A DNA stretch of 59,732 nucleotides from a virus. Lineage: Duplodnaviria > Caudoviricetes. The first letter of the stretch is position 1, and each line of letters begins with the position of its first letter. Of the stretch, positions 7,382 to 59,732 are shown piece after piece. The position numbers were made by a program, and so were the translations under genes. The notes under the pieces were generated by a model, which saw only the letters and a program-made list of their open reading frames with translations, was not told the origin of the DNA and made no database searches. The stretch spans positions 1 to 59,732 of the IMG/VR virus record IMGVR_UViG_3300025813_000004. The stretch is one strand, 5' to 3'.

Positions 7382-8001
7382 AAATAAGAAAATGTATTAA
7401 TATAATTGGAATCAAATTTGGAAAACTTACCGTTATTAGAGAAGCAAGTAGCAACGAAATAACAAATACAAAACAAAGATGTAAAATGTGGGTATGTAAA
7501 TGCGATTGTGGTAAAGAAATAATAGCAAGAGGAACTAATTTAAGAGCTAAAGTTACTAAATCATGTGGATGTTATGCTAAAGAATTAAAAAAATTACCTA
7601 AAAAAGAAAAACCATATAGCAAATATAAAGCATATAAATCATGGAATAGTATGAAAGTTCGTTGCCTTAATAAAGACAATGAACATTATAAATTTTACGG
7701 TGCTAGAGGGATTAAAATATGTGAAAGATGGTTAAATTTTAAAAACTTTTTAGAAGATATGGGAGAAAGACCGGAAGGGAAAACATTAGATAGAATTAAT
7801 GTTAATGGTAATTACACTAAAGAAAATTGTCGTTGGGCGACTCCGGAAGAACAATCTAACAACACAAGGAAAAATGTTAAAATAATGTATGATGGGAAAT
7901 TAAAAACTTTTTATGAATTAGAAAAAATTACAGGCATAAAACGAAAAAAGTTAAAAAATAGATATTATAAAGGGAAAAGAGGAAATGATTTATTTATTTA
8001 G
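7378..8001 (+). CDS. HNH homing endonuclease (start uncertain; reading frame open from 7378)
   Basis: IGIKFGKLTV...WVCKCDCG...SCGC, YGARGIKICERW, TLDRINVNGNY...NCRWAT motifs. Confidence 0.85.
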   Translation: MKIRKCINIIGIKFGKLTVIREASSNEITNTKQRCKMWVCKCDCGKEIIARGTNLRAKVTKSCGCYAKELKKLPKKEKPYSKYKAYKSWNSMKVRCLNKDNEHYKFYGARGIKICERWLNFKNFLEDMGERPEGKTLDRINVNGNYTKENCRWATPEEQSNNTRKNVKIMYDGKLKTFYELEKITGIKRKKLKNRYYKGKRGNDLFI

Positions 8002-8424: not shown

Positions 8425-8877
8425 ATGGCAATAAAAAAAGAAATTAAAGCATATGTTGAGTGCGAGTTACGCGATTATTTACAAACAATACGCGATCTAG
8501 GCGAAGAACGACAACATATTATTGATAGTTTGCCAACCTTTGATGATAGCGGAATAAGAGGTGCAGGCATTAGTAGGACTTGTGAGAAAAAAGCGTTACA
8601 ACTTATCACTAGTAAAAGAATACTATATATAAACAGAACGATAGAGGCTATACAATCGGTTTTAGATTCATTGCCAGAAGAAAAGTATAAACTTGTGCAA
8701 TTAAAGTATTGGGCAAAAACACAAACTAAAGCGGATGAAGGAATCGCTAGAGAGTTGCATATTGAAAAAACAACATATTATAAATGGGTTAACGGCATAA
8801 TTCTAGCGGTTGCGGTTGAACTAGGTATGATTAATGGAGTAAAAGAGGAAAAAGTGCGGAGTTTTAGGGGTGCATAA
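8425..8877 (+). CDS. ArpU/RinA-family late transcriptional activator
   Basis: AYVECELRDY N-terminus; LPEEKYKLVQLKYW...IARELHIEKTTYY HTH; end of the early region. Confidence 0.85.
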   Translation: MAIKKEIKAYVECELRDYLQTIRDLGEERQHIIDSLPTFDDSGIRGAGISRTCEKKALQLITSKRILYINRTIEAIQSVLDSLPEEKYKLVQLKYWAKTQTKADEGIARELHIEKTTYYKWVNGIILAVAVELGMINGVKEEKVRSFRGA

Positions 8878-8895
8878 CGATTTATAATAGTAGTG
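8848..8895 (+). promoter_or_regulatory. Probable activator-dependent late promoter (-10 TATAAT at 8883-8888)
   Basis: Consensus -10 with no clear -35, directly after the RinA/ArpU gene. Confidence 0.55.
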
Positions 8896-8899
8896 TGAA

Positions 8900-9442
8900 G
8901 AGTTATATTAATACGCTTTTTACATAGCGAAAGCGAGTCTTAAGGGGCGAATGTCAAGCTGGACGTAAAACGTAGCCGTTGCCGATTAGTTAATATCGGA
9001 TGCTTGGCGGTGATGCTTAAACCGCCAACTATACCGTAACCTGTTAAACCCATACAAACGCTTAATTATCTTATGATAATACGGACTAGTTGTATGATGA
9101 GATGAAGCAGGAGCGCATTACGGTAAAATTAGCTAGATTGATCGCTAGCAAGGGCGTGACGGTAGTCACATGTACGTGAAAGCGTGGACGGGGCAATCAC
9201 GACTTTAAAAACACTGGGGTAACTAGAGTTTTGATAAAGGATATGGTTATGAATAATAATTATGTCGCTTAATTTTTAAATGGTTATCAAATATATTGCT
9301 TTTCGGTGGCGGGAAAACGAGAACCGAGCGAGTGTGAAATGTTGGACAAGAGCACAGACTTCTTATGTTAGTCATAAAACATAAATTAGCTGACGAGTAA
9401 GGCTACTTGTTGCGTGCCACAAGCGAAAGTAGACACGCCCTA
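8900..9442 (+). ncRNA. Large structured ncRNA candidate (ROOL/GOLLD class; ROOL-like by size)
   Basis: ~540 nt without a >=60-aa ORF, GC-richer than flanks. Many nested helices (9004-11/9021-28, 9032-39/9118-25, 9051-57/9090-96, 9151-58/9434-41, 9230-37/9284-91) and GNRA loops. Confidence 0.65.
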
Positions 9443-9490
9443 AATATAAAATAATTAAATTAATATAAATAAAATTAAGGATGTGTTTTT

Positions 9491-9661
9491 ATGGATGCTC
9501 AAGAATGTAAAATTAGATCAGAAGAACTACAAAAAGCGTCTTTACCTTTGTTAGAATTTTTGAATAAATACTATAACCCTCATACTTATGCGGTAGTTAC
9601 AGAGGGAAGTGTTGAAATTGTTTGCGGCGAAATGTCGGCTGGTTTACCAGTTAGGGACTAA
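9491..9661 (+). CDS. 56-aa hypothetical protein
   Basis: MDAQECKIRSEELQKASLPLLEFLNKYYNPH...; AAGGA RBS; followed by terminator. Confidence 0.6.
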   Translation: MDAQECKIRSEELQKASLPLLEFLNKYYNPHTYAVVTEGSVEIVCGEMSAGLPVRD

Positions 9662-9676
9662 ACATATAAATACAAC

Positions 9677-9705
9677 AAAAGCACTCTTTATAGAGTGCTT
9701 TTTTA
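9677..9705 (+). terminator. Rho-independent terminator
   Basis: AAAAGCACTCT-TAT-AGAGTGCTTTTTT. Confidence 0.8.
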
Positions 9706-10027
9706 ATGCGTAAATAAGAAAGGAGCTAAGTAATGCAACACAGACAATGTAGCGGATGTTTTCACTACGACCAAAAAAATGATACATGCAAAAGTCAATC
9801 ACCATGCTTGAGATGTTCTGGATTCGACCCTATTAATGTTTGCTATAGTGAGTTTAGCAAACGAGGGAAAAAAGAGATTAGAGGAATAGTTTAGATGAAA
9901 GATAAAGAAACGCAAGAAGCTGAATTTGAAAGCAACTGCAAGAAAATAAGTAAAAAAGATGCTTATAGAAAACATGTTTTAAGAATGACAGGATGCAGAA
10001 AAAATAAATACAATTAAATAAATAATT

Positions 10028-11415: not shown

Positions 11416-11916
11416 GTGGAGCGTGATTTTATGATAATTGATATTGAAAAGCAAAATAAAACAGCTATGAAATGGATACTTAATTATTACGAGTTAAAAA
11501 AGGCTTACATAGAACGATCAGCAAACTTTAGCACATTAGGTGCAACGCAATATGATGGTATGCCACATGGAACTAGTGTTGGCAATCCATGTGCTAATAA
11601 AACAATGACATTATTAGATTTAGAAGAATCACGTAAATGGATTATGGTTATTGAAAAAATGGAACAAACATTATCTGAAAAAAGTAGAAAATATCTTGAA
11701 ATTAGAAGAGATGCTGCAAGCCAAATAAAGAGCAATAAGGGAATTGGTAGACCTGGATGGGTTGATTATGCCCAAGTAAAATACATAGATTGGTTTAAGT
11801 ATAGATATGGCAAGGAAATTGATGCACCAACCAAACAATGTATGACAGGATGGATGAATAAAATTTTAGATGTAACAATTAGAATTGCATTTAACGATAA
11901 AGTTTTAAAAATATAA
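11416..11916 (+). CDS. Second ArpU/RinA-like transcriptional regulator
   Basis: WILNYYE...QYDGMPHGTSVGNP...WIMVIEKM pattern; followed by TATAAT at 11951. Confidence 0.65.
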   Translation: MERDFMIIDIEKQNKTAMKWILNYYELKKAYIERSANFSTLGATQYDGMPHGTSVGNPCANKTMTLLDLEESRKWIMVIEKMEQTLSEKSRKYLEIRRDAASQIKSNKGIGRPGWVDYAQVKYIDWFKYRYGKEIDAPTKQCMTGWMNKILDVTIRIAFNDKVLKI

Positions 11917-12568: not shown

Positions 12569-12883
12569 ATGCTACAAAAGTTAAATATCACAAGATTAAA
12601 AGGCAAAGCAATATCAATACTTAATGATGAAATACACGAAAGAGATAACTATAAATGTATTATTGATGGTTGTTATAATAATATAGATGATGATGAAAAG
12701 TTTCATCATGAAAAACGTAATGGATTAAAGAACGATGTGATACAAGAAGGAATATCATTATGTTACAAGCACCATCAAGACAGGCATTTTGGCGATAATA
12801 GTAAAGAAATAAAGCGACAATGCGTTACATATTTAAGCAAGATATATCCTGATTATTGGAAGGATGCTGATATAGATGGATAA
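12569..12883 (+). CDS. HNH-like small nuclease
   Basis: ERDNYKCII.GC...FHHE...LCYKHHQDRH. Confidence 0.65.
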   Translation: MLQKLNITRLKGKAISILNDEIHERDNYKCIIDGCYNNIDDDEKFHHEKRNGLKNDVIQEGISLCYKHHQDRHFGDNSKEIKRQCVTYLSKIYPDYWKDADIDG

Positions 12884-15996: not shown

Positions 15997-16755
15997 ATGA
16001 GCAGATTAATTAATATAAATAATTATATTGGAAATAAATATGGCAGATTAAAAGTCATGTATGAAGTTCCAATAAAAAACAAAGGCAAGCGTAGAGTTCA
16101 TTGCAAGTGCGATTGTGGTAATGAGATGGATGCAGATTTATATTCATTGCGAAGATCATTTACTCGTTCTTGTGGTTGTTACAATAATGAAATTAGAAAA
16201 GTAACATGCAGCAGTAATTTTTATAAAGGTTCAAATACAATTATTAAATATGCTGAACATGCAGAAGTTGTAATTGTTGATAATAACAATAATGAAAAAT
16301 GCCGTACCATTATAGATTTAGATGATGTTGATAAGATAATAGAATATAGATGGGTTTTTAATGGCGATTATATAATGACAAATAAAACAAATGATGGTAA
16401 TCCAATTTTGATGCATCGTTTTATTTTGCCTGTTGAAAATTTTGTTGACCATATTAATCACAATAAACTAGATAATAGAAAATGTAATTTACGAGAAGCA
16501 ACCAATCAGCAAAACATTATGAATTCTCGTATAAAATCAACAAACAAATCAGGATTTAAAGGCGTAAGCCGTGATAATAAACGAAATAAATGGTCTGCTA
16601 CTATTGGCTTTAATTATAAAACAATTCATTTAGGACGTTTTAATAATAAAGAAGATGCAATAAAAGCTAGACAAGAAGCTGAACTTTTATATTTTGGGGA
16701 ATTTTCACCACTTCATAGTGTTGATAATTCTGGAGGTGATTTCGCCCTTGGCTAA
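15997..16755 (+). CDS. HNH homing endonuclease with C-terminal AP2 domain
   Basis: CKCDCG, VDHINHNKLDNRKCNLR, SGFKGV...KWSATI...HLGRF...EDAIKARQEAE. Confidence 0.92.
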   Translation: MSRLININNYIGNKYGRLKVMYEVPIKNKGKRRVHCKCDCGNEMDADLYSLRRSFTRSCGCYNNEIRKVTCSSNFYKGSNTIIKYAEHAEVVIVDNNNNEKCRTIIDLDDVDKIIEYRWVFNGDYIMTNKTNDGNPILMHRFILPVENFVDHINHNKLDNRKCNLREATNQQNIMNSRIKSTNKSGFKGVSRDNKRNKWSATIGFNYKTIHLGRFNNKEDAIKARQEAELLYFGEFSPLHSVDNSGGDFALG

Positions 16756-18051
16756 TTATGCACCATTCACAGAAACACAATCTACATACATAAAAGAGTC
16801 TTTAAAACATAATAACTGGTGTAATGTGCTCGAGGGCGGTTAAGCAAAAGATCGGGCAAAAATGTACTGAATGTTATTGCGTTTTGTGCAAATCTAGAAA
16901 CACATCCAGATAAATTACATCTAGCAGCAGGCGTTAGTAATGCAATGGCACGATTAAACTTGCTAGATAGTAACGATTTTGGCATTAAAGCATATTTCAA
17001 AGGCAAATGCCGAGAAGGTAAATATAACGATAAAGATGCACTTTACGTTCAAACGAAAACAGGCGAAAAGATAGTATTGATTGCAGGGGGAGCCAAGGCC
17101 GGAAGTGCCAAAATGATTAAAGGACTTTCGATAGGCATGGTAGCTTGCTCAGAAGTTAATGAATGTGATGAAGAATTTGTTAAAGAAATGTTTGATAGAA
17201 CAATGGCAAGTTCACGTAGAAAGTTGTTTTTTGATTTAAATCCTAAAGGTGAATTACATTGGTGGTATGAAATCCAAAATCTACAAGAACAAAATAAAAT
17301 AAAGAATCCTCAATATGGTTACAATTACGCACATTTAACTATATTTAATAACTTGTCATTATCAGATGAAAAAGTAAAACAGATATTAAGTACATACAAT
17401 AAAAAATCAATATGGTATCAACGTGATATACTAGGCCTTCGCAAAAATGCAGAAGGTCTTATTTATGATATGTTTGGTGCTGATAATCAATATGAAGATG
17501 GACAAGGCGGCCCTGATTACAATTTATTGTACAAACGGTATTATTCAATAGATTATGGTACAGTTAATCCTTTCTCTTGTCATGAATATATTGAGCAGAC
17601 GATTGAGCGAAACACTATCTATTATGTCGAAGATGAATTTTATTATGATTCTAAAAAAGAAAAGAAACAAAAAGCTGATAGAGAATATGCCGATGATTTA
17701 CATAACTTTATTGATAACAAAAGATATTTAGGTATAATCATTGATCCAAGTGCATCAAGTTTTAAAGCTGAATTGAGAAAGAGAAGTTTAAAACCACGCG
17801 AAGCAGATGACCTAATTAATGCAGACAATGAAGTACTAAACGGAATTAGACTTGTTGCTACAATGTTTCAAGCTGGTAAGTTATTTATAAATAAAACAAA
17901 ATGCCCTAATTTAATTAGAGAATTAAACTCTTACCTTTGGGATGAAAAAGCATCTGAGCGCGGAGTTGAAAAACCTATTAAAGAAAATGACCACGGGCCA
18001 GATGATTTGCGTTATTTCTGCAAAACAGTCGTTAAGTCATACAGAATATAA
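16748..18051 (+). CDS. terL: Terminase large subunit (PBSX-like), reading frame interrupted by a stop plus 5 extra nt at 16841-16845
   Basis: GGAGGTGA RBS, TTG start; ...WCNVLEGG*|KRSGKNV. Downstream frame has Walker B (SEVNE), DLNP coupling motif and nuclease IDYG/DPSA/DHGPDDLRY. Confidence 0.88.
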
Positions 18052-20915: not shown

Positions 20916-21533
20916 ATGGAACAATTTAAAAGATGTGTTCAATGTAAGAAAATAAAAGGTATATCTTTATTTTATAAAAATAAAAGCAAACCTGATGGAT
21001 TACAAAATATGTGTAAAGATTGTACAAAAGAAAACGATACAAAAAGAAATAAATCAGGTAAAAGAGCAAAATATTATATTGAATATTATAGATTGAGAAT
21101 TAAAACCGATGAAAAATTTCATGAAAAAGAAAAGATAAGGGCAAAAGAGTATTACAAAAGAAAATCGTTAGAAAATCCTGAAATTTATAAAGAAAATCGT
21201 AAAGAAAATCGTAAAAGGGAATATCAGAAAAACAGAGAAAAATACATATTAAAAGCTTATAAGCGATTAAAAAAATATAAAAATACAAAAGGTAGTTTTA
21301 ATCGTAAACAGTTAGAAGCTAAATTTTCTCTTTATGGGAATAGATGTGCTTATTGTGGAAGTGCCGAAAAAATAACTATAGATCATGTAATACCTTTAAA
21401 TAGAAATGGAACTCATTTCCCAGCAAATTTAGTTCCTTGTTGCCAAAAATGTAATTCTGCTAAAAGAGACAGAAAAGGATGGATACCTCATTTACCACAT
21501 AGTAATATTTCTACTATTTTTCATATAATATGA
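20916..21533 (+). CDS. HNH endonuclease with N-terminal zinc finger
   Basis: KRCVQCK...CKDC; CAYCG...TIDHVIP...NLVPCCQKCNSAK. Confidence 0.9.
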   Translation: MEQFKRCVQCKKIKGISLFYKNKSKPDGLQNMCKDCTKENDTKRNKSGKRAKYYIEYYRLRIKTDEKFHEKEKIRAKEYYKRKSLENPEIYKENRKENRKREYQKNREKYILKAYKRLKKYKNTKGSFNRKQLEAKFSLYGNRCAYCGSAEKITIDHVIPLNRNGTHFPANLVPCCQKCNSAKRDRKGWIPHLPHSNISTIFHII

Positions 21534-46779: not shown

Positions 46780-48222
46780 CTATACTATAATCCTATACTT
46801 TAACTCTTGTCCTTTTTTCTTATATACTACCACAGTTATACCATATTCGCATAGTAATTTATTCCTTTTTTTTGTTGTATTTGCTGCAAGCACATCGGCT
46901 AATTCAATTTTTACTTTTCTATTTAAACTTTCTTGTGATATTTTTAGTTCACTAATTTGAGTTTCGATACTATTTATTTCATTAGTCAATTGTCTTAGCT
47001 TTTTTCTTGCTTTAACATTATCTATTAATCCTTCTAAAACCAAGTTTGTAATATTATCTTTATTCTTTTCCAATTCGATATATTTTTCTTTTAATTTATT
47101 TATTTTTTGATCGTTATTTGGACTATTATTTTCACTTGGCAAATACCCCGTTCCTTTAGCGATATTGACTATATATTCCCAAACGGCAGTTTCTAATTCA
47201 TCAACATGCACATAACCGGTATCCGGACATATTTTTAACTGTCTCTTTCCATAACAAACGTAATATTTTAATAATCGTGGTTTTCTATTGTAAGATATCG
47301 CAAGCATCCCATATCCGCAATACCCGCATTTTAGTAATCCTGTTAACATATATTCTCTTTGCTTGTTCCTTCTAGCAAATTCTATATTTTCAGAGAATTG
47401 TTTTTTTACTTTAATTTGGTCTTCCAACGTAACAATGGCTGGTACGGCAATTGGTATCCAATCTGATTTATCGTTTTTAGTAACTTCAACTTCACGTTGT
47501 CCAGTTTTACGCCAATTAGTTTTCATTTCATATAAAGTTCCTGAATAAGTTGTGTCTTTTAATATTGTGTGGATGTATTTAATTTTAAATGGTCTTCCAA
47601 ACTTGTTTAATATCTTTTTATCATTTAAATGCTTTGCTATTCTCTCTAGTCCCATTTTTTTATCAATACACATGGAATATATCTCTTTTACTATTTTCGA
47701 CTCATTAGGATTAATCTCGTAAACACCATCTATAATATCGTAACCGAGTTTAGGTTTGGGAGTTACTATTTTACCGGATAATGCTTTTTCCTTTTTGCCG
47801 TGCATTACTCGTTCACGGATTTTTGCTTTTTCAAAAGCCGCTACAGCACCACGAATACTAAAGAACAATTTTCCTTCTGGGCTTGATTCGTATTCGGCAG
47901 TAACAAATATTAATTTAGTCCCAGCTCGTTCAAATTCATCTGATAATAATAATGTGTTTGTTAAATTACGACTCAATCTGTCGGGGTCTAAGATTGATAT
48001 GTAACCAGTTATTTTTTTATTACGGATATCTTGACGCAACTTATCTAACGCTGGACGGTCTAGAAACTCACCAGAATAGCCGTCATCGACATATTCTATT
48101 ACGTCCTTAGTGTTTATACCTAAAGATGATAATTTTTGCTTGTTGGCTCGTATTTGATTTGCTAACGAGTAACCAGACTTGGCTTGTTCTTCTGTCGAAA
48201 CTCTTGTGTAAATTGCATGCAT
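46780..48222 (-). CDS. Large serine recombinase (phage integrase)
   Basis: AIYTRVSTEEQ, DDGYSG, DRLSR, recombinase domain, LTGLLKCGYCG zinc ribbon, coiled coil. Confidence 0.95.
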   Translation of the reverse strand: MHAIYTRVSTEEQAKSGYSLANQIRANKQKLSSLGINTKDVIEYVDDGYSGEFLDRPALDKLRQDIRNKKITGYISILDPDRLSRNLTNTLLLSDEFERAGTKLIFVTAEYESSPEGKLFFSIRGAVAAFEKAKIRERVMHGKKEKALSGKIVTPKPKLGYDIIDGVYEINPNESKIVKEIYSMCIDKKMGLERIAKHLNDKKILNKFGRPFKIKYIHTILKDTTYSGTLYEMKTNWRKTGQREVEVTKNDKSDWIPIAVPAIVTLEDQIKVKKQFSENIEFARRNKQREYMLTGLLKCGYCGYGMLAISYNRKPRLLKYYVCYGKRQLKICPDTGYVHVDELETAVWEYIVNIAKGTGYLPSENNSPNNDQKINKLKEKYIELEKNKDNITNLVLEGLIDNVKARKKLRQLTNEINSIETQISELKISQESLNRKVKIELADVLAANTTKKRNKLLCEYGITVVVYKKKGQELKYRIIV

Positions 48223-51247: not shown

Positions 51248-51901
51248 ATGGACAATCAAAGATTACAAGAAATAATTAAATCTCATGGTAGATGGTTAAC
51301 AGATAGTAATAATGGTAGTCGTGCTGACTTGTGTGGTGCTGACTTGTGTGGTGCTAACTTGTGTGGTGCTGACTTGTATGGTGCTAACTTGTGTGATGCT
51401 AACTTGTGTGGTGCTAACTTGTGTGATACTAACTTGTGTCGTGCTGGCTTGTATGGTGCTAACTTGCGTGATACTAACTTGTGTCGTGCTGACTTGTATG
51501 ATACTAACTTGTGCCGTGCTGACTTGTATGGTGCTAACTTGTGTGATGCTGACTTGTGTGATGCTAACTTGTATGGTGCTAACTTGTGTGATGCTAACTT
51601 GTATGGTGCTAACTTGTGTGATGCTGACTTGTGTGGTGCTAACTTGCGTGGTGCTAACTTGCCAAATAAAATAATTCAAGTTGGCCCGATTGGTAGTCGC
51701 AAATCATACACAATTTACAATGTTGATAATAACGTAGTGCAATGCGGTTGTTGGAATGATTGGAAAGGCGGAAGTTTGGAAGATTTTATTAAGCGCATTG
51801 ATAATGTTTATAAACCAGATACGGTATATGGAAAAGAATACAGGGCGGCAATTGAGCTATTTAAAGCAATGCGTGCAATGCAAAACGAGATTAAATCATG
51901 A
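51248..51901 (+). CDS. Pentapeptide repeat protein
   Basis: About 23 A[D/N]Lxx repeats followed by QVGPIGSR...VQCGCW domain. Confidence 0.92.
   Translation: MDNQRLQEIIKSHGRWLTDSNNGSRADLCGADLCGANLCGADLYGANLCDANLCGANLCDTNLCRAGLYGANLRDTNLCRADLYDTNLCRADLYGANLCDADLCDANLYGANLCDANLYGANLCDADLCGANLRGANLPNKIIQVGPIGSRKSYTIYNVDNNVVQCGCWNDWKGGSLEDFIKRIDNVYKPDTVYGKEYRAAIELFKAMRAMQNEIKS
51320..51661 (+). repeat. 15-bp coding tandem repeat (GCT[A/G]ACTTGT[G/A]TG[G/A]T)
   Basis: Directly visible. Confidence 0.95.
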
Positions 51902-59246: not shown

Positions 59247-59732
59247 ATGAGTAAATCAATTAAAGGATTCAAAGGGTTTGATAAAAATTTAAAATGCCGC
59301 AATTTCCAATATGAAGTAGGTAAGGAATATAAGCACGAAGGAGAAGTTAAGGCTTGCAACTCTGGATTCCACTTTTGCGAAAATCCATTAGATGTATTTG
59401 GTTATTATCCACCTACTGAAAGTCGTTATACCGAAGTTACAGGCAAAGATAAATTTGATAAAGGTGGCGATGACAGTAAGGTTTCTTGCCAACGTATTAA
59501 AATTGGTGCGGAAATTAAATTGCCGGGCATTATTGAAGCTGGCGTTAAGTTTATCCTTGAACGTATTAATTGGAAAGATGATAAAGAATCTAATACTGGT
59601 TACCGAAGTGCTGCAACTAATACTGGTGGCCAAAGTGCTGCAACTAATACTGGTTACCAAAGTGCTGCAACTAATACTGGTGGCCAAAGTGCTGCAACTA
59701 ATACTGGTTACCAAAGTGCTGCAACTAATACT
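59247..59732 (+). CDS. N-terminal part of DUF7666-like repeat protein (continues at 2-424)
   Basis: GGAGG RBS; MSKSIKGFKGFDKNLKCRNFQYEVGKEY...GFHFCENPLDVFGYY...; open to the window end. Confidence 0.88.
   Translation, partial: MSKSIKGFKGFDKNLKCRNFQYEVGKEYKHEGEVKACNSGFHFCENPLDVFGYYPPTESRYTEVTGKDKFDKGGDDSKVSCQRIKIGAEIKLPGIIEAGVKFILERINWKDDKESNTGYRSAATNTGGQSAATNTGYQSAATNTGGQSAATNTGYQSAATNT

Follow-up and report, generated by a model that had tools for sequence, protein, structure and literature searches.

A candidate modular structured RNA closed by a long-range duplex, located behind a rinA-like gene in a temperate phage genome

What does a temperate tailed phage keep in more than 600 nucleotides (nt) of gene-free DNA directly behind the gene for its late transcriptional activator? 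The stretch that raises this question, 8878-9490 (613 nt), lies in the complete IMG/VR virus record IMGVR_UViG_3300025813_000004, whose 59,732 bases were analysed in full and are called the window here; bounded by the stop codon at 8877 and the ATG at 9491, it is the longest gap in the genome that is free of open reading frames (ORFs). An earlier note on this DNA had marked about 540 nt, starting at 8900, as a candidate large structured RNA—either ROOL-like or new—that forms the first transcript of the late promoter. The answer we propose, which we favour but would not yet call probable, is that 8893-9441 specifies a new, modular, + strand structured noncoding RNA of ~550 nt, in which exchangeable hairpin cassettes are held in a long clamp helix.

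The stretch offers little room for a protein. Its longest ORFs are 34 aa on the + strand and 42 aa on the - strand, which agrees with the claim that ~540 nt without a substantial ORF follow an ArpU/RinA-type gene; the RinA similarity of the upstream product was found both by PHROG profiles and by tblastn. Stop codons number 6-23 per frame across all six frames, with all three stop types frequent, and hidden coding under an alternative genetic code was rejected because no single stop reassignment opens any frame. Two gaps elsewhere in the genome appear larger, but are not ORF-free (they contain ORFs of 278 and 274 aa). Base composition sets the region apart as well, with a G+C content of 0.40-0.445 in the stretch versus 0.22-0.36 in its flanks. 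A long ORF-free, G+C-enriched stretch occupies the same place in all four phages known to us with this arrangement: the present one and three related IMG/VR contigs (L002, L003, and L004), whose RinA proteins are 78, 73, and 70% identical to the one in the window and whose stretches measure 554-942 nt.

Folded with tools that predict no pseudoknots, the + strand of 8890-9450 reaches a minimum free energy (MFE) of -163.7 kcal/mol, compared with -136.5 +/- 6.1 kcal/mol for dinucleotide shuffles (z -4.47; 0/100 as good); the - strand of the same stretch gives z -1.16. Five + strand controls of the same length elsewhere in the genome gave z-scores of 0.46, -1.38, -2.89, -2.29, and 0.28—the stretch is thus the extreme of those tested, though its margin over the best coding control is not wide. 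An excess on one strand only, a generic mark of structured RNA, is present in the window and weaker in the relatives. Several parts fold better than chance locally, namely 8893-8925 (z -3.07), 8996-9036 (z -4.45), 9028-9128 (z -3.68), and 9230-9291 (z -2.89). The pairings that the earlier note had listed are all there: TTGGCGGT/ACCGCCAA at 9004/9021, TTTGATAA/TTATCAAA at 9230/9284, and AGGGCGTG/CACGCCCT at 9151/9434. GCTAG/CTAGC and TCGGT/ACCGA are found in the fold, and TACCGTAA/TTACGGTA, enclosing CCTG/CAGG, forms when 9028-9128 is folded alone. The structured part begins slightly before the proposed start at 8900, at about 8893, and runs to 9441; the observation as such stands.

The dominant element of the fold had been overlooked. 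P1 is an imperfect long-range duplex of 42 pairs between 8944-8994 and 9385-9441 that appears both in the MFE fold and in the partition function, with pair probabilities of 0.88-0.99 except for one 3-pair segment at 0.54. The AGGGCGTG/CACGCCCT helix, previously taken to close a domain of ~290 nt, does exist as complementarity, but is outcompeted by this far larger helix, which uses the same 3' bases. Together the arms of P1 reach -47.3 kcal/mol, against -22.8 +/- 3.7 kcal/mol when one arm is shuffled (0/1000 as good), and against -24.6 kcal/mol for the local folds of both arms summed—a difference of ~23 kcal/mol. With the antisense of 8940-8996 itself set aside, no window among 5684 from both strands of the genome pairs better with this segment than the 3' arm. 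Strand specificity is evident here too: the equivalent duplex on the - strand has -28.9 kcal/mol, so P1 is 18 kcal/mol better on the + strand, and the five transition mismatches between the arms all belong to the G-U type, with no A-C among them, an outcome expected by chance 1 time in 32.

Variation among related sequences touches P1 in several ways. Compared with the L004 copy of the module that holds the 3' arm, the window gains two Watson-Crick pairs with 8958-8959 from its differences at 9423-9424, and the one at 9417 turns a G-U into a G-C pair. Both arms co-occur in a soil-metagenome contig whose interior is swapped. In L002, the same GGGGCG of module M1 pairs with a different downstream CGCCCC, closing a domain of ~360 nt with a pair probability of 0.71. 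Long-range duplexes are predicted in L002 and L003 (z -2.3 to -3.4), but these were picked after folding and we give them little weight.

Between and around the arms, the region divides into modules M0 to M7, whose borders fall between predicted hairpins (Table 1). It is a mosaic, in which shared modules other than M0 match different relatives, and M2, M4, and M6 have no counterpart in L002-L004. The DNA of the flanking rinA and 56-aa genes is 71-79% identical among these phages, whereas M1 is 100%, M3 97%, and M7 94.5% identical to its respective counterpart. The alignment of M0 gives a consensus of 13 pairs, in which 3 changes are one-sided and 1 cell is broken. Within M5, the 9132-9149 hairpin with its GAUC loop is identical to L002 at 19/19 bases.

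Table 1. Coordinates of the candidate RNA, its modules, and the adjoining elements in the window.
Feature	Position	Strand	Observations
RinA-family late transcriptional activator gene	8425..8877	+	150 aa; upstream neighbour of the candidate RNA
-10-like hexamer TATAAT, candidate promoter	8883..8888	+	weak -35
M0, 5' hairpin	8893..8925	+	only module common to all four phages; 80-82% identity to L002, L003, L004
M1, 23S rRNA domain II look-alike: GAAA-capped mini-hairpin and 4-5-pair hairpin	8926..8951	+	26/26 identical to L002 3871-3896
P1 5' strand (end of M1 and module M2)	8944..8994	+	pairs with 9385-9441; alone z 0.21
M3, 8-pair hairpin TTGGCGGT/ACCGCCAA with 9-nt loop	8996..9036	+	97% identical to L003 3918-3953; 0/200 shuffles as good
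M4, long hairpin closed by TACCGTAA/TTACGGTA	9032..9125	+	local fold; no BLAST match in L002-L004
M5, hairpin group 9132-9149, 9156-9169, 9175-9201, 9217-9286 enclosing 9240-9266	9130..9290	+	77-80% identical to L002 3900-4051
M6, three smaller hairpins 9298-9329, 9330-9361, 9363-9384	9291..9382	+	MFE helices; absent from L002-L004
M7	9383..9455	+	94.5% identical to L004 3642-3714
P1 3' strand (within module M7)	9385..9441	+	pairs with 8944-8994; alone z -1.06
A+T-rich spacer with ribosome-binding site for the next ORF	9442..9490	+	9-nt tandem repeat, 2.9 copies (9443-9470)
56-aa ORF, function unknown	9491..9661	+	phrog_4621, E 4.5e-5; follows the RNA region in L002 and L003; absent in L004
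Intrinsic terminator-like hairpin and U run	9677..9707	+	11 pairs (9677-9702), -14.5 kcal/mol, z -4.71; then TTTTTT

The modules also occur in a relative from soil metagenomes, represented by contigs of two runs. Its rinA gene has 73 differences in 457 nt (84% identity) and its M0 region is replaced by 185 other letters, whereas M1-M2-M3 (8915-9031, 117 nt) shows only 3 differences; 9067-9296 is replaced by 196 other letters, and M6-M7 (9297-9454, 158 nt) follows with 8 differences and one inserted base. Part of M4 (9047-9066) is covered by a soil-run contig. The 2024 soil-metagenome contigs (runs X3 and X4) carry the clamp modules of 8915-9454 with a swapped interior. In one soil contig, a different sequence that resembles a terminator stands in front of M3. 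The circulation of the modules thus extends to contexts beyond the four phages.

Other searches returned few sequences. A contig (L009) of a Massilibacillus sp. metagenome-assembled genome (MAG) shows no difference from L003 in the 942 nt that were compared and, at 59,148 bases, has roughly the length of a phage genome; because L009 is probably the phage itself, the link to a Massilibacillus host is tentative. Blastn of the window stretch and of the L003 stretch found no match in GenBank phages, and the stretch had no match in plasmids. IMG/VR, searched by protein and with four DNA patterns, yielded L002-L004 only, plus a chance match in a coding region (L006), and two scans of metagenome contigs, by protein alignment and by pattern, yielded no relatives. 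Among 401 genomes of the MAG's class, only 6 further ones gave short A+T-rich matches (E 2e-4 to 5e-3), which we regard as chance. A match of L004 3811-3834 to genomes of the host class was likewise dropped as chance, since it lies in a coding region with no transfer RNA (tRNA) nearby.

One module has a recognisable look-alike outside phages. M1 is the best match of the whole phage to one 8-kb ribosomal RNA (rRNA) locus, at 38.3 bits and E 0.003, with the runner-up at 30.1 bits. It is also 27/30 identical to every one of the 8 rRNA operon copies in a genome (G005) from the MAG's order, with E 0.007 per genome. It maps to positions ~670-697 of the large-subunit (LSU) model, where the rRNA forms a GAAA-capped mini-hairpin and a five-pair hairpin; the same two hairpins are predicted for M1 folded alone, while in the best fold of the window part of M1 is taken up by P1 instead. 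The match is modest, but suggestive of a copied segment of 23S rRNA domain II. No other module of any relative matched rRNA.

The relatives carry a second element that resembles a host RNA. A tRNA-like element, which the window lacks, lies at the 3' end of their structured regions (L002 4271-4364, L003 4243-4336, and L004 3717-3810), with a 7-8-pair acceptor stem, a D arm, a canonical T arm (GGTTCGATTCC), an aberrant anticodon region, and a long extra arm. It scores 26 bits against the tRNA-Sec model, whose gathering score is 47, and ARAGORN does not call it; that program found no tRNA or tmRNA in the whole window or in loci L001-L004.

Is such an RNA likely to be made, and from where? The upstream gene product matches phrog_36 (E 1.9e-13) and phrog_248 (E 1.8e-11), and has no Pfam match at E<=0.01. 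By tblastn it matched 159 phage records; the best 15 of the 159 show 28-36% identity over 84-91% of its length and are annotated as RinA or transcriptional regulator, including Geobacillus and Staphylococcus phages. The TATAAT noticed after this gene is present, and the alignment shows the hexamer kept as TATAAT or TAAAAT in all four phages. RinA proteins activate a promoter upstream of terS (excerpted text of PMC3152322). The earlier note had the RNA co-induced with virion genes. This part of the proposal is doubtful, because a strong + strand terminator stands after the 56-aa ORF, and ahead of terS (13964) there are still ~3 kb of small ORFs, along with a further RinA-like gene and an HNH gene. 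Judged from these signals, the region looks like a short transcription unit of its own rather than the head of the virion operon, with 9677-9707 as its likely end. A pattern scan had recorded the 9677-9702 palindrome on the - strand only. Within the window there is no terminator between the structured part and the 56-aa ORF; in L003 an intrinsic terminator lies between the structured region and the tRNA-like element, hence before the ORF, and L004 keeps the structured region without the ORF.

The second, weaker RinA/ArpU-like ORF lies at 11416-11916, closer to terS and 2.5 kb beyond the first rinA-like gene; its match to phrog_248 (E 2.9e-4) is confined to the N-terminal half. It may encode the activator of the true late promoter.

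On the reading we favour, transcription would start at the conserved -10-like element right after the rinA-like gene and produce the M0 hairpin, then the 23S rRNA-like M1, and then a body closed by P1. P1 would be the organising element, joining both ends around some nine hairpins and so clamping and stabilising the RNA. As a long imperfect double strand, it may also be a substrate of RNase III, by which a discrete RNA would be released or stabilised, separate from the message for the 56-aa ORF that would end at the 9677-9707 terminator. Such an RNA would be independent of the next ORF, because a terminator lies between the two in L003 and the region exists without the ORF in L004. The cassettes, kept or exchanged as units, would be its functional pieces, perhaps binding sites or decoys; more speculatively, M1 might bind whatever normally recognises that part of 23S rRNA. 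A bolder version, for which our confidence is low, is a new class of phage RNA: a duplex-clamped scaffold bearing a rack of traded cassettes that mimic or decoy host RNAs, for example the 23S domain II hairpins and the tRNA-like element. Such decoys would act on a ribosomal protein, an enzyme that modifies RNA, or a defence nuclease that targets RNA, and palindromic loops, such as the GAUC in the 9132-9149 hairpin, could in addition permit self-association of the RNA as in ROOL and GOLLD.

Several observations weigh against a functional RNA of this kind. A coding control reached z -2.89, and much of the global folding excess of the window comes from P1 alone, because a ban on pairs spanning more than 150 nt costs 18 kcal/mol. 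The whole-region folds of the relatives are weak and not strand-specific (20 shuffles each): z -0.41 (+) and -1.63 (-) for L002, and z -3.13 (+) and -2.74 (-) for L003. In L004, M7 is present without its M2 partner arm and folded into two local hairpins. The candidate promoter is a consensus match only, and promoter-like sites were not enriched over shuffles (8 found, 10.0 expected). Only a handful of relatives came to light: L002-L004 from IMG/VR, the MAG contig identical to L003, and a number of contigs from metagenomes. One conserved tertiary fold across them is unlikely, because module content differs so much among close relatives. Recent recombination, as opposed to selection, could account for the high identity of the short modules.

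Comparative support is similarly limited, with only two sequences per shared module, and no significant covariation was demonstrated at that depth. M5 is the only module whose two copies, in the window and L002, have truly diverged; in their consensus, 38/38 pairs stay standard with 9 one-sided and 2 two-sided changes, but this consensus derives from the same two sequences, and 134/500 shuffles do as well, which is not significant. A 12-nt insertion between the two copies is confined to a hairpin loop. When the M5 structure is taken from the window alone, 13 pairs are changed, of which 8 are kept and 5 broken (null mean 8.9 broken, P 0.035); the hairpins 9132-9149, 9156-9169, 9175-9201, and 9240-9266 survive the comparison, while the helix 9203-9239 fails.

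Much of this evidence would also suit a recombination mosaic without function, an explanation that we consider unlikely though far from negligible. The boundary behind the activator gene would then be an exchange hot spot among phages rich in free-standing HNH endonuclease genes. Remnants of tRNA genes, an rRNA fragment picked up along the way, former terminators, and an inverted duplication as the source of the long complementarity would have piled up there and would fold well by accident. The mosaicism is indeed extreme among close relatives, with modules shared with different phages; the genome has four HNH endonuclease genes, one of them 900 nt upstream; the tRNA-like element of the relatives is degenerate, and an rRNA-like fragment is present. 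The weak global z-scores of L002 and L003 and the lack of significant covariation point the same way. Sequence without function, however, would be expected to decay no more slowly than synonymous sites, whereas M1, M3, and M7 retain 94-100% identity next to flanking genes at 71-79%. A neutral inverted duplication predicts neither the G-U-only transitions of P1 (5 to 0) nor its 18 kcal/mol advantage on the + strand, and all four phages retain the ORF-free, G+C-enriched stretch despite the tight packing of phage genomes.

The structure could instead serve in cis, as the 5' leader of the 56-aa ORF message or of a read-through late transcript, with alternative folds that control termination, stability, or translation; the leader after the Q gene of lambda offers a parallel. 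The region does follow a conserved -10-like hexamer and precede an ORF that has a ribosome-binding site, and the window shows no intervening terminator. Weak local hairpins in competition with P1 are open to both M2 and M7, and the promoter on which RinA-type activators act lies upstream of terS. Yet in L003 the structured region is separated from the ORF by a terminator and the tRNA-like element, L004 keeps the region and lacks the ORF, 600 nt is very long as a leader for 56 aa, and a balanced switch is unlikely because P1 (-47.3 kcal/mol) outweighs the local folds together (-24.6 kcal/mol). We therefore rate a leader as improbable. A DNA-level element—a replication origin, or a packaging or attachment site, with inverted repeats that only look RNA-like—seems less probable still: there are 33 inverted-repeat pairs in the stretch and A+T-rich repeats at 9443-9470, but folding is strand-asymmetric where the symmetry of a DNA duplex predicts equal scores, the iteron-like repeats are elsewhere (1731-1838, beside the helicase-loader gene), and the integrase and terS genes lie at 46780-48222 and 13964, respectively. 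Membership of a diverged ROOL or GOLLD family is the idea to which we give the least credence. In its favour are the similar size, the location in a phage, and the tRNA-like element that adjoins the region in the relatives, whereas no covariance model of either family matched 8700-9700 at E<=10, the whole window at the gathering score, or the relatives at E<=1, and there is no conserved 3' core of the GOLLD type, the 5' hairpin alone being common to all four phages.

A modular RNA clamped by P1 would be of interest for several reasons. Few molecules in microbiology are as poorly understood as large structured phage RNAs such as ROOL and GOLLD, whose structures are known while their functions are not. 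A third example, unrelated to either, would help in finding out what role such RNAs have. The candidate has a defined regulatory position after the late activator gene, a simple architecture that can be tested, and a recognisable rRNA-like piece. Cassette exchange, if true, would be a new route by which the functions of phage RNAs evolve; if the region is a recombination scar instead, it would be a warning that long, folding-prone, gene-free stretches of phage genomes need not be RNA genes.

As to the phage itself, PHROG scans of the 47 larger ORFs identify it as a temperate tailed phage with a serine integrase (46780-48222, - strand), replication genes, and genes for terS (13964), terL, portal, protease, major head protein, tail sheath, baseplate, and fibres. 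Its HNH-type endonuclease genes lie at 7486-8001, 12569-12883, 15997-16755, and 20916-21533, the nearest upstream one ending ~900 nt before the candidate RNA region. The gene at 15997-16755 is directly upstream of the terL ORF (16945-18051), which matches terminase profiles in its C-terminal part only (phrog_2 positions 338-589 of 807); the partial match beside an HNH gene suggests that terL is split or interrupted. Repeats are a further feature of this genome. A 27-nt tandem repeat occurs at both record ends within small ORFs (1-198, 7.3 copies; 59590-59732, 5.3 copies), and the record's 'direct terminal repeat' call may have its basis in this coding repeat rather than in true genome ends. 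Short tandem repeats with periods of 9-18 nt (AACAAAGAACC-like) cluster at 1731-1838, inside the ORF at 1382-2218 and beside a gene for a DnaC-like helicase loader; they are iteron-like and a possible replication origin. At 51321-51661, a 15-nt unit repeated 22.7 times within the ORF at 51248-51901 (phrog_7713, function unknown) gives a pentapeptide-repeat protein.

How does the candidate compare with RNAs already described? With Rfam 15, the whole window has no match at the gathering score; at E<=10, 8700-9700 has only two chance-level matches, both outside the structured part and neither to ROOL or GOLLD; and at E<=1, L002-L004 have nothing relevant save the sub-threshold tRNA-Sec-like match. 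Membership of ROOL (RF03087) and GOLLD (RF01998) was rejected on these grounds, the covariance models being unmatched in window and relatives, and none of the defining sequence or structure features compared here was found. The ROOL-like identity suggested in the earlier note is thus set aside, while its broader idea of a large structured RNA keeps its footing: the region is noncoding, + strand-specific, heavily paired, phage-borne, and placed after a RinA-family gene. Literature searches on ROOL, GOLLD, and phage, and on ornate or noncoding RNAs with covariation since 2019, returned no description of such an RNA after rinA, supplements aside.

ROOL RNAs average 581 nt, have many hairpins and junctions, are encoded by phages and prophages, and have no known function (excerpted text of PMC5737381). 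The candidate resembles them in size (549 nt, 8893-9441), in its many hairpins, and in its location in a complete virus record with integrase, terminase, portal, capsid, sheath, and baseplate genes; it differs in that its module content is not conserved among close relatives and in that the phage has no tRNA gene, whereas tRNA genes are frequent neighbours of ROOL and GOLLD. GOLLD is likewise phage-borne, with a conserved 3' region, a variable part, and tRNAs in or beside it (excerpted text of bioRxiv 10.1101/2024.12.08.627333). Here too the candidate would be a large phage RNA with a variable part, and its relatives carry a tRNA-like element on the 3' side, but that element is below threshold, the candidate is smaller, and the relatives share only the short 5' hairpin M0 and differ in their 3' modules.

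Mimicry of rRNA is known from autoregulatory leaders that bind ribosomal proteins. OLE RNA, with bS21, is another case of an RNA that binds a ribosomal protein (excerpted text of PMC12054373). M1 has no known partner protein and its match is modest (27/30; E 0.003-0.007), but it appears to copy both the sequence and the two-hairpin fold of its 23S rRNA segment. Long processing stems that join 5' and 3' sequences are a feature of rRNA precursors and of phage RNase III sites. The body of the candidate is not rRNA, with only 26-30 nt resembling 23S rRNA, and cleavage is here something we only infer; P1 nonetheless shares with those stems its basic design, a long imperfect duplex of segments hundreds of bases apart that encloses a structured body.

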